Of a stretch of DNA of 7,666 bases, positions 3,001 through 7,666 are shown in pieces. Each line of letters opens with the position of its first letter. The stretch's first letter is position 1. The stretch is from a virus (lineage: Duplodnaviria; Heunggongvirae; Uroviricota; Caudoviricetes), in the IMG/VR virus record IMGVR_UViG_2869930542_000005. One strand, written 5' to 3'. The position numbers are program-made.

Positions 3001-6000
3001 CCGAACGCAAGAAAGCTGAAACCAGAATGAAGGAGGTTAAGCATGACTGGTAAACGCACTCTCCCCACCATGACACACGACGAAATGGCAGCCAAATGGA
3101 TGGAAGACCCGGCTTTTAAAGCAGAATACGACGCTATCGCTGACGAATTCGCACTGCTTGATGAAATGCTGGCAGCACGCAAAGAAGCTGGCTTAACTCA
3201 GGCTGAAGTTGCCGAGCGAATGGGAACAAAAGCGACCGCGATCACCAGAATGGAAAGTAATCTCGCATCAGGTATCAGCGGCCCATCATTTGCCACCCTA
3301 AAAAAATTCGCCCGCGCTACTGGAAAAAAACTCCAGATCCGCTTCGTTTAACCACACCGCGCCGTCATTCTGGCGGCGCACCGGATAAATAGCCATTTCC
3401 TCGCACGATGTCTTAGCCACCGGATATCCCACAGGTGAGCCGTGTAGTTGAAGGTTTTTACGTCAGATTCTTTTGGGATTGGCTTGCGTTTATTTCTGGA
3501 GCGTTTCGTTGGAAGGTATTTGCAGTTTTCGCGGATGATGTCGGTGAAACTTCGTCGCTGTCGCCTCATTCATACCTCCTGTCGGTAAATCTGACACCCT
3601 GACCAATAGCCCAGGCTGTTGTGTACTCGATCAGACTTGCCATGCGCTTCACGCTCATCTGCGCGCTGCTTTCGCGAATGTTGACGCATTCTCCTTCAAG
3701 GCCGGGCAAAACATCAGCTTCCTGTTTTGTTGCCACTGCATGACCGCTGATCAACAAAACCTTCCATTGTTCTGGTTTTAACCATTTGCCGCACCATTGA
3801 ACCTGACGAGCGATATCCGCCAGCATCGCGTGAAATTTTGCGTTCTGGTCAAGATTTCGCTTGTAGTCAGTAATGCGGATGGTGACTGGCTTGTCTTTAT
3901 CGAGAGGAGTTGAGAGGATGGCATTTATTGCGGCTTGCTGTTGTTGCTTAGTTCGGAGGAAGATTGTTTGCTTCATCGAAAATTCTTCTCTTTAATTCCA
4001 GCGGCTCTGATAGCTTTCATTACTGCAATTACCGTTTTGTCTCTCCCATCCTCATAACTGAGGTGTACTGGCAATAGCGGACACTACCATTTGTTCTTTT
4101 TTTAAGCACAGCCATCTGATGATATTTTTCCCTGAAGGCTGCCGGGGAGATATTCCCCAGACGAGAGTGACGACGCTGACGATTGTAGAAAATCTCAATG
4201 TATTCCCGTATTACTGAGATGGCTTCATCCCGGTTATTAAAACGATAGTGGCTCAGGCTCTCATTTTTCAGCGTTCCCCAGAAGCTTTCCATCGGAGCGT
4301 TGTCGTAACAGTTACCTTTACGCGACATTGATGTTTTCAGACCAAACTGCTCCTGTATGACCCGGTAATCGTATGCGCAGTACTGTGAACCTCGATCAGA
4401 GTGGTGGATTAGCCCGGCAGGTGGGCGCTGGCTCCTGAGCGCCATAAACAGGGCTTTACCTGTCAGCTCTTTTGTCATGCGCTCTCCCATGGCGTAGCCG
4501 ACAATTTCGCACGTATAAACATCTTTGATGCCAGCGAGGTACAACCATCCCTCCTGTGTGGCAACATACGTCAGGTCCGCCACCCAGACCTGATTTGGTG
4601 CTGTAGGAGCGAACGTCTGGTTCAGCAGATTTGGCGCAACTGGCAGATTGTGGTTCGAGTTCGTAGTCGCTCTGAACTTGCGTTTCTGCTTACAGCGTAG
4701 CCTTAGCTCCTTACGAAGACTGAGGTAGCCTGAGTTTAACGGACACTCCTTCCTGAAATAGAATGGCATCAGAAGGAGCTAATAATGAGCAGAAAAACCC
4801 AACGTTACTCTAAAGAGTTCAAAGCCGAAGCTGTCAGAATGGTTCTTGAAAATCAACTTTCGATCAGTGAAGGCGCTTCCCGATTATCCCTTCCTGAAGG
4901 CACTTTAGGACAATGGGTTACCGCCGCCAGAAAAGGGCTCGGTACTCCTGGTTCCCGCACGGTGGCTGAACTGGAATCTGAAATTCTGCAACTGCGTAAG
5001 GCGTTAAATGAAGCTCGCCTTGAGCGAGATATATTAAAAAAAGCAACAGCGTATTTTGCACAGGAGTCGCTGAAAAATACGCGTTAATCGAACAATGGCG
5101 ACAACAATTTCCCATTGAAGCGATGTGTCAGGTATTTGGTGTATCCAGGAGCGGTTATTACAACTGGGTACAGCATAAACCCTCAGACAGAAAACAAAGT
5201 GATGAGCGACTAAAACTGGAGATTAAGGTGGCACATATCCGCACTCGCGAAACATATGGAACCCGGCGGCTCCAGACGGAGCTGGCAGAGAATGGCATCA
5301 TCGTTGGTCGTGACCGACTGGCACGTCTGAGGTGTACTGGCAATAGCGGACACTACCATTTGTTCTTTTTTTAAGCACAGCCATCTGATGATATTTTTCC
5401 CTGAAGGCTGCCGGGGAGATATTCCCCAGACGAGAGTGACGACGCTGACGATTGTAGAAAATCTCAATGTATTCCCGTATTACTGAGATGGCTTCATCCC
5501 GGTTATTAAAACGATAGTGGCTCAGGCTCTCATTTTTCAGCGTTCCCCAGAAGCTTTCCATCGGAGCGTTGTCGTAACAGTTACCTTTGCGCGACATTGA
5601 TGTTTTCAGACCAAACTGCTCCTGTATGACCCGGTAATCGTATGCGCAGTACTGTGAACCTCGATCAGAGTGGTGGATTAGCCCGGCAGGTGGGCGCTGG
5701 CTCCTGAGCGCCATAAACAGGGCTTTACCTGTCAGCTCTTTTGTCATGCGCTCTCCCATGGCGTAGCCGACAATTTCGCACGTATAAACATCTTTGATGC
5801 CAGCGAGGTACAACCATCCCTCCTGTGTGGCAACATACGTCAGGTCCGCCACCCAGACCTGATTTGGTGCTGTAGGAGCGAACGTCTGGTTCAGCAGATT
5901 TGGCGCAACTGGCAGATTGTGGTTCGAGTTCGTAGTCGCTCTGAACTTGCGTTTCTGCTTACAGCGTAGCCTTAGCTCCTTACGAAGACGTGCCAGTCGG

Positions 6001-7666
6001 TCACGACCAACGATGATGCCATTCTCTGCCAGCTCCGTCTGGAGCCGCCGGGTTCCATATGTTTCGCGAGTGCGGATATGTGCCACCTTAATCTCCAGTT
6101 TTAGTCGCTCATCACTTTGTTTTCTGTCTGAGGGTTTATGCTGTACCCAGTTGTAATAACCGCTCCTGGATACACCAAATACCTGACACATCGCTTCAAT
6201 GGGAAATTGTTGTCGCCATTGTTCGATTAACGCGTATTTTTCAGCGACTCCTGTGCAAAATACGCTGTTGCTTTTTTTAATATATCTCGCTCAAGGCGAG
6301 CTTCATTTAACGCCTTACGCAGTTGCAGAATTTCAGATTCCAGTTCAGCCACCGTGCGGGAACCAGGAGTACCGAGCCCTTTTCTGGCGGCGGTAACCCA
6401 TTGTCCTAAAGTGCCTTCAGGAAGGGATAATCGGGAAGCGCCTTCACTGATCGAAAGTTGATTTTCAAGAACCATTCTGACAGCTTCGGCTTTGAACTCT
6501 TTAGAGTAACGTTGGGTTTTTCTGCTCATTATTAGCTCCTTCTGATACCATTCTATTTCAGGAAGGAGTGTCCGTTAAACTCAGGCTACCTCAGTCTGTG
6601 TTGTTCTGAGGTGAGCATATCACCTCTGTTCAGGTGGCCAAATTCAGTGTGCCACTTCAATTACTGCTACAGGGACCCAAGGACGGGTAAAGAGTTCGGA
6701 TTAGGCCGAGACAGGAGGATAGCAATCACTGAAGCAATACAGGCCAACATTGAGTTGCTATCAGACAGCGGGCGCGAGTCACTGATAGACAGGATTAAAG
6801 GCGCTGACTCAATCACCCTTCATGCGTGGCTTGACCGATATGAAACAATCCTCAGCGAGAGGGGCATCAGACCGAAAACTCTACTCGACTACGCCAGCAA
6901 AATCAGGGCAATTCGAAGAAAATTGCCGGACAAACCGCTCACTGACATATCAACGAAAGAGGTGGCAGCAATGCTAAATACCTACGTAGCAGAAGGTAAA
7001 GCGGCTTCCGCAAAATTAATCAGGTCAACCCTTGTTGACGTTTTTCGTGAAGCAATAGCCGAGGGGCATGTGGCTACGAATCCGGTAACAGCAACCCGCA
7101 CAGCAAAGTCAGAAGTAAGGCGCTCAAGGCTGACAGCTAATGAGTATGTCGAGATTTACCATGCAGCCGAACCTCTCCCTATCTGGCTGAGGCTGGCAAT
7201 GGATTTGGCCGTCATTACAGGGCAGAGAGTGGGCGATTTATGCAGAATGAAGTGGTCAGACATAAACGACAACCATCTTCACATTGAGCAGGGTAAAACA
7301 GGGGCTAAGCTCGCCATTCCGCTGACGCTAACGATTGACGCGCTCAATATCTCACTGGTTGATACACTACAGAAATGCAGGGAAGCCAGCAGCAGTGAAA
7401 CTATAATCGCATCAAAGCATCACGATCCGCTTTCCCCGAAAACAGTATCAAAGTATTTTACAAAGGCGAGAAATGCCTCCGGACTCTCATTTGATGGAGA
7501 CCCGCCAACATTCCATGAACTGCGTAGCCTGTCAGCGAGGCTATACCGGAACCAGATTGGCGATAAATTTGCTCAACGTCTTCTCGGGCATAAATCAGAT
7601 TCAATGGCGGCGCGGTATAGGGACAGCCGAGGGAGAGAATGGGACAAAATTGAAATCAACAAATGA

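Follow-up and report, generated by a model that had tools for sequence, protein, structure and literature searches.

The DNA analyzed here (the window) is a stretch of 7,666 nucleotides from a virus of the Caudoviricetes (IMG/VR record IMGVR_UViG_2869930542_000005), and its genome is CP026780.1, the PacBio assembly of Shigella dysenteriae type 1 (SD1) strain 53-3937 (PMC7819885). Between the prophage genes ninB and int it holds a 2.5 kb block (4059–6593) made up of segments of two copies of one insertion sequence (IS), IS600, here called the resident and the incoming copy. Comparison with a closely related strain revealed that the resident copy took up the incoming one, with duplication of 3 bp, and that an inversion followed which ended at the tips of both left inverted repeats (IRLs). 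Moreover, the junctions indicate that this inversion was probably carried out by transposase.

In the IS-saturated genomes of Shigella, inversions are routinely put down to recombination between IS copies, and homologous recombination between inverted IS copies is the usual cause of chromosomal inversions in SD1 (PMC7819885). The junctions described here tell transposase chemistry from homologous recombination, which is rarely possible in such genomes, and the two strains, 3 single-nucleotide polymorphisms (SNPs) apart, form an unusually clean natural before-and-after pair of an IS3-family rearrangement. Short IS-internal inversions escape surveys by whole-genome alignment, and the inversion in the window is absent from the 42 inversions listed for SD1 genomes (PMC7819885). 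The element is an ordinary IS600 performing known kinds of IS3/IS30-type chemistry, and the locus is a new instance, not a new kind of system.

Organization of the IS600 Block

The block comprises the following features, in which IS positions are counted along the 1266-bp element and the right inverted repeat is abbreviated IRR.

4059–4720, minus strand: segment A, a 662-bp 3' fragment of the resident IS600 (reverse complement of IS 605–1266), with the IRR tip at 4059 and A at 4320 (IS 1005 marker).
4718–4720, no strand: GAC triplet, IS 605–607 of the resident copy; the original self-insertion target, now abutting the resident IRL.
4721–5327, plus strand: segment B, a 5' fragment of the resident IS600 (IS 1–607), inverted relative to its own 3' fragment, with C at 4767 (IS 47 marker).
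5328–6593, minus strand: segments C and D, the intact 1266-bp IS600 of the incoming variant (markers 47T/1005C), with orfA at 6529–6227 and orfB from 6191.
6594–6596, no strand: GTC triplet, an inverted copy of GAC, standing where the other SD1 genomes examined have CACC after the resident IRL; the trace left by the inversion.
4029–4769, minus strand: open reading frame (ORF) of 246 amino acids spanning junction 4720/4721, made by the rearrangement; it encodes only the catalytic rve domains of the resident OrfB, behind a novel N-terminus.

A repeat finder run on the whole window returned the same blocks as the mapping of segments. At junction 4720/4721, ...CGAAGAC is followed by TGAGGTAGCC (IRL at 4721), and at junction 5327/5328, in plus-strand reading, ...GGCACGTC is followed by TGAGGTGTAC (IRR at 5328). 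Both novel junctions thus set an IS tip against one and the same internal IS position, with the triplet on both sides; at the second junction it is GTC at 5325–5327, and in the intact copy it occurs once, at 5987–5989. Segment B contains orfA (4785–5087), the A7G slippery site (5036–5043) and the first 68 codons of orfB, and orfA is present twice (4785–5087 on the plus strand, 6227–6529 on the minus strand), with orfB in the intact copy only. The start codon of the 246-amino-acid ORF is an ATG inside the inverted IRL that exists because IS 47 is C, the resident marker; the ORF was found as a gene call only in the genome of the window, and an exact look-up of its protein is what placed the window in CP026780.1.

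These results agree with the original prediction, made from the window alone, in the order of the three segments, the exact coordinates of the block, the two junctions at one internal IS position with a duplicated GAC/GTC triplet, and the presence of one complete orfA/orfB set plus an extra complete orfA. Three details required correction. The segments had been described as differing by one base; there are two single-base differences, at IS 1005 (4320 A versus 5589 G) and at IS 47 (4767 C versus 6547). The inverted repeats had been given as 607 bp and measure 612 nt, since GTCT at 6594–6597, outside the intact copy, mirrors AGAC at 4717–4720; through this match beyond the IS, the intact copy too has GTC on either side. 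Finally, the right-hand neighbour named as int begins with the first 63 nt of IS911 (6597–6659), and homology to int starts at 6660. Exact repeats on the kilobase scale, as found here, leave no room for chance.

Identity of the Element

The element is IS600, of the IS3 group of the IS3 family. Compared along its full length with records that bear the annotation 'IS3-like element IS600 family transposase', it is 99.3–99.9% identical in nucleotide sequence. OrfB scored 334.8 bits on NF033516 transpos_IS3 (cut-off 160), OrfA spans profile positions 1–86, and the 410-amino-acid product matched the Pfam domains HTH_Tnp_1, HTH_21, rve, rve_2, and rve_3. The gene orfA starts at IS 65, the ATG of orfB lies at IS 403 in frame -1, and the A7G slippery site lies at IS 316–323; a programmed frameshift is annotated in RefSeq for IS600 copies of Escherichia coli. 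The terminal repeats are imperfect and of the TG...CA type (IRL TGAGGTAGCC..., IRR TGAGGTGTAC...), matching at 18 of 26 positions. Target site duplications (TSDs) are 3 bp long, as seen in the GAC/GAC pair around the inner copy of strain 07-3308 (see below) and in clean 3-bp TSDs of many E. coli copies. In the 0/-1 arrangement of orfA and orfB, the A7G site, the TG...CA ends, the 3-bp duplications and the rve/DDE transposase, the element conforms to the IS600 of Shigella and E. coli.

The S. dysenteriae variant differs from the E. coli IS600 in length (1266 versus 1264 bp) through a TG insertion at IS 1215–1216. This insertion removes the orfB stop codon, so that orfB reads through the IRR into the flanking DNA; in the intact copy there is no stop within the IS, and the frame runs through the IRR into 5298–5327. 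The insertion lies within 4095–4110 and 5364–5379 of the window, and orfB acquires C-terminal tails specific to the locus, ...YTSVMRMGETKR at 4029 and ...YTSDVPVGHDQR at 5298.

Precursor States in Related Genomes

SD1 relatives were found through a look-up of the truncated integrase. A single IS600 lies between ninB and the IS911/int remnant in HNCMB 20080 (L004), BU53M1 (L008), and two further genomes (L006 and L007). In strain 07-3308 (CP026878, L005) the order is ninB, a 3' fragment of orfB, a full IS600 in the opposite orientation, a fragment with orfA, and int. Strains 53-3937 and 07-3308 differ by 3 core SNPs, and the next nearest genome is about 212 core SNPs away (PMC7819885 Suppl. Table 3). 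The search for simpler precursors in related genomes, which the original prediction had proposed, thus yielded both the single-copy state and a plain nested state, the latter in the closest relative.

The two marker positions allow the copies to be followed. All single-copy genomes carry 47C/1005T, as does the E. coli IS600. In 07-3308, 47C and 1005T are found on the outer fragments and 47T/1005C on the inner intact copy, which lies within a direct GAC repeat; the locus is a textbook case of IS600 inserting into IS600. The two fragments of the window (4059–4720 and 4721–5327) are of the resident type, and the intact copy near int is purely of the incoming type and identical to the inner copy of 07-3308. 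The GAC that abuts the incoming IRL in 07-3308 abuts the resident IRL in the window.

The DNA immediately past the IRL reads IRL'|CACCTGTGTTG in all other SD1 sequences compared (L004–L010, draft contigs included) and, in the window alone, IRL'|GTCTGTGTTG; past the changed flank, identity resumes and holds for 8173 bp. Since the outgroups establish CACC as ancestral, the nested state cannot have been derived from the state in the window. No TSD consensus was found among E. coli copies of IS600 that would make GTC a target preference, and that the GTC on the right is new is shown by the comparison with 07-3308.

The 28-nt exact patterns of the first junction and of the GTC flank had no match in genome_contigs or metagenome_contigs, and a junction-spanning ORF of 83 amino acids had no database record. 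Two ORFs diagnostic for the two states, of 246 and 184 amino acids, were each found in one genome. The diagnostic k-mers are GGCTACCTCAGTCTGTGTTG for the inverted state and CGAAGACTGAGGTAGCC for the insertion.

Inversion Model and Proposed Mechanism

Reverse-complementing the 1873 bp between the two IRL tips turns the IS block of 07-3308 into that of the window. An explicit model built from the 07-3308 sequence, X + GAC + rc(M) + GTC + Z (rc, reverse complement) with CACC dropped, reproduced window positions 3400–7666 exactly. The inverted segment is bounded by inverted copies of the triplet, GAC at 4718–4720 and GTC at 6594–6596, where the precursor has GAC and CACC. An inverted duplication around an inverted segment, together with loss of a spacer, is the signature of an intramolecular paste-in reaction in inversion mode. 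For IS elements that transpose by copy-out/paste-in, integration beside their own inverted repeats (IRs) and inversions through intramolecular attack by an IR-IR junction have been described (PMC9333248 for IS30, with reference to IS911; PMC7986276), and such targeting of ends is termed IR-targeting in the IS30 literature (PMC9333248).

The inversion that followed the self-insertion was therefore, in all probability, a non-homologous, tip-to-tip reaction mediated by transposase, and we favour a single step in which DNA derived from IS911 served as a surrogate IS600 end. In the first step, which the comparison shows, the incoming IS600 (47T/1005C) entered the resident copy, which bridges ninB and the IS911-truncated int, in the opposite orientation at IS 605–607, creating a direct 3-bp GAC duplication; this nested state is preserved in 07-3308. 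In the second step, specific to 53-3937, the 1873-bp segment between the incoming and resident IRL tips was inverted tip to tip, an event that is likewise shown and of which we infer the chemistry as follows. The resident IRL would have been severed from its flank and linked to the GAC abutting the incoming IRL, and the DNA 4 bp past the old resident end, which starts with TG and resembles an IS600 end, would have been joined to the other side of that GAC. The outcome is the inverted GAC/GTC duplication and the loss of the 4-bp spacer CACC. In the one-step route, the arrangement 'resident IRL - CACC - surrogate end' would act as a junction of abutted ends and integrate into the GAC beside the incoming IRL, with two 3'-OH ends flanking the spacer: one at the resident IRL tip, the other 4 bp farther out, on the strand that terminates in ...CAACACA-3'.

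The candidate surrogate end, TGTGTTGTTCTGAGGTGAGC, starts with TG and has 12 of 20 matches to the IRL and likewise to the IRR, equal to the match of IRL with IRR. Among 31,406 background positions, only 24 scored as well, and this flank had the best score among those of the 55 IS600 ends examined. In the product, the candidate end once more lies next to an IRL, and the spacing is now the canonical 3 bp.

Several points weigh against this interpretation. The candidate end does not contain the conserved CGGACAC block (positions 20–26), which makes binding of the transposase there doubtful. A one-step route and a route of several steps, through a circle and a transient real junction, would be expected to leave the same sequence. 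The right junction is ambiguous by one base and can be read as GTC+TGTG or as GT+CTGTG. Finally, each state is represented by a single assembly, and the whole case is read from natural genome assemblies.

A more far-reaching and rather doubtful proposal is that two identical ends (IRL and IRL), combined with a weak foreign surrogate end, let the IS600 transposase perform conservative tip-to-tip inversion; the locus could then flip repeatedly and independently of RecA, and nested copies would be self-perpetuating hot spots of rearrangement in the IS-rich genomes of Shigella.

Alternative Routes

Starting from the nested state, the same structure could have been reached in several steps: the incoming copy would form a circle with GAC as spacer, this circle would insert beside the resident IRL and create a real IRL-CACC-IRR junction, that junction would attack the GAC at the IRL of the first copy to give an inversion with a tandem dimer of incoming copies, and the dimer would collapse to one copy. 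This scheme requires no surrogate end, each of its steps is paralleled in the literature on IS30 and IS911 (IR-targeting, junction reactivity, dimer dissolution), and its derivation on paper gives the same final sequence as the explicit model. It is nevertheless unlikely, as it takes four events against one and demands that the targeted insertion retain the circle spacer on its far side, and none of its intermediates was seen.

The original prediction had recognized in the window the footprint of IS600 ends attacking a 3-bp target inside another IS600 copy, and had judged the event recent; both views are borne out by the comparisons. It offered two routes. One was inversion-type transposition from a tandem IS dimer, considered here in a form in which, on the single-copy ancestor, an incoming circle would have integrated beside the resident IRL, and the resulting IRL-spacer-IRR junction would have attacked GAC at IS 605–607 in inversion mode. 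Formally this route does give the structure of the window, with segment order and marker pattern both obtained by derivation on paper, and the literature records dimers as well as inversions driven by junctions for IS30, IS911, IS2, IS3, and IS150. It does not stand up well against the sister strain, however, 3 SNPs away, in which the same IS variant would need to have hit the same triplet a second time, independently, to produce the nested state; that state keeps the ancestral CACC, so that it cannot descend from a dimer or from the state in the window. Moreover, the GTC on the right would call for a circle with a GAC/GTC spacer by chance and for non-canonical retention of that spacer, and no dimer state was found among the SD1 relatives or in the pattern searches of contigs. 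Taken together, an origin from a dimer on the ancestor is improbable.

The other route was insertion of one copy into another followed by inversion between the inverted repeats. Taken as homologous recombination of the RecA type within the 607-bp inverted repeats of the nested state, it could draw on near-identical inverted repeats of 607–612 bp that are indeed present, and E. coli offers examples of inversion between IS600 copies in inverted orientation, such as one locus (L027) with the TSD halves GTG/CAC and TGA/TCA. Yet a crossover at IS 48–607 predicts T at 4767 and the complement of C at 6547, the opposite of what the window has; any crossover within the IS would keep the CACC flank, where the window has GTC; and the precursor has no homology past the tips (AGAC versus GGTG). 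Because the flank changed from CACC to GTC and the IS 47 markers swapped arms, homologous recombination is contradicted as the second step, and we regard it as most improbable.

An assembly artefact, with repeats mis-oriented in one of the two PacBio assemblies, might be suspected at a locus of 0.6–1.3 kb repeats of which each state is known from one assembly, the more so as a homopolymer in the IS1 of this assembly differs by 1 bp. It is scarcely credible, since mis-orientation would neither turn CACC into GTC, which is exactly reverse-complementary to the triplet found at the opposite breakpoint, nor explain the coherent shift of both SNP markers, and 2.5 kb is easily spanned by PacBio reads.

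Three further schemes were worked through on paper and rejected. A composite IRL-IRL figure-eight or circle followed by reinsertion would give a direct and not an inverted duplication; excision and rejoining would require the joining of non-complementary overhangs; and a second incoming copy in the IS911 flank, followed by recombination, would leave a suffix of CACCTGTG at the end of the right flank.

Comparable IS600 Arrangements and Known Systems

Independent nested IS600 copies comparable to that of 07-3308 occur in E. coli, with an intact copy inside another in opposite orientation and a 3-bp direct repeat. In RM6927 (L002, 2659–5189) the insertion lies at IS 616–618 with the TSD CTC, only 11 bp away from the Shigella target at IS 605–607. 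The 97-3250 lineage (L003, 3352–5882) has it at IS 720–722 with the TSD TAC, about 115 bp away from that target. Unlike the window, these loci are still simple nested insertions on which no tip-to-tip inversion has followed. The clustering of nested insertions near IS 605 is only suggestive, as the search was centred on this region.

Further nested cases were sought among the E. coli matches with a double IS600 (L018–L027), of which L018–L023, L026, and L027 come from prophages of Shiga toxin-producing E. coli, plasmids and one chromosome. None of these ten loci was a simple inverted nested state. Six (L018, L019, L021, L022, L026, and L027) are close inverted pairs of intact IS600, mostly a few hundred bp to about 2 kb apart; in three (L020, L024, and L025) IS600 copies are interrupted by other elements (IS30, another IS3-family element, and IS91); and in L023 an IS600 stands directly beside a truncated one that has the same orientation. 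The pair in L027 encloses an inverted segment, its TSD halves being split as GTG/CAC and TGA/TCA, by an event of the recombination or the transposition type. L018 and L021 differ at the same locus.

The closest known counterparts are the rearrangements by IR-targeting and IR-IR junctions of IS30 and the targeted insertion of IS911. The window shares with them breakpoints exactly at IS tips, inversion as the outcome, a target consisting of a few bp abutting the inverted repeat of another copy, and the exchange of an old, lost spacer for a new abutted arrangement (IRL-GTC-TG...). It differs in that the donor 'junction' would consist of the resident IRL and IR-like IS911 DNA instead of two genuine ends, and in that the case is read from natural genomes. 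IS30 and IS911 are the only elements with a documented dual target specificity, and IS600 is not among them (PMC9333248); the present locus suggests that IS600, like these two elements, can target the flank of its own ends. With inversions by homologous recombination the window has in common that a segment bounded by inverted IS sequence has flipped, but here the exchange lies at the IS tips, the flank is altered, and an inverted 3-bp duplication was made.

Prophage Surroundings

The block is bordered by the following features.

3566–3976, minus strand: ninB, which together with 3977–4058 forms the left flank of the resident IS600 and is unchanged in all states.
6597–6659, minus strand: remnant of the left end of IS911 (nt 1–63), of which the inner part, 6597–6616, is TGTGTTGTTCTGAGGTGAGC.
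6660–7666, plus strand: lambda-type integrase gene int, with homology beginning at about codon 22 of an intact E. coli homologue.

The IS911 remnant, in reverse orientation, is 63 nt long in the window versus 67 nt in the other SD1 genomes. The insertion of IS911 thus truncated int near codon 22, and the resident IS600 adjoins the IS911 DNA shortly before the start of the IS911 orfA.

On its ninB side, the resident IS600 is preceded by ...CCTCA-TAAC-|TGAGG (window 4046–4063), in which the flank is a perfect 5-nt mirror of the IS tip. On its IS911 side, the flanks of HNCMB 20080 read CTCA|-CACC-TGTGTTG, so that, as on the ninB side, an IS600-end-like sequence stands at a 4-bp offset. The IS600 copies of E. 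coli have no such end-like flanks at this offset. The resident copy may have reached both positions by end-targeted events. No target duplication surrounds it (AAC versus CAC).

Through the IS block, ninB/ninE are joined to int (3348–7666), and the early region of a lambdoid prophage, from xis to P/ren, is missing, which would be consistent with an older IS-mediated deletion.

Elsewhere in the window, the C run of an IS1 element (296–301) shows a 1-bp deletion relative to all other SD1 genomes, the sister strain included; it splits the transposase frame, and either a genuine frameshift or an error of PacBio sequencing in the homopolymer could account for it. At 2643–3351, an ORF of the Gp49 family (PF05973) is followed by an HTH_3 ORF, which looks like a putative toxin-antitoxin pair of the HigB/HigA type in the prophage remnant.

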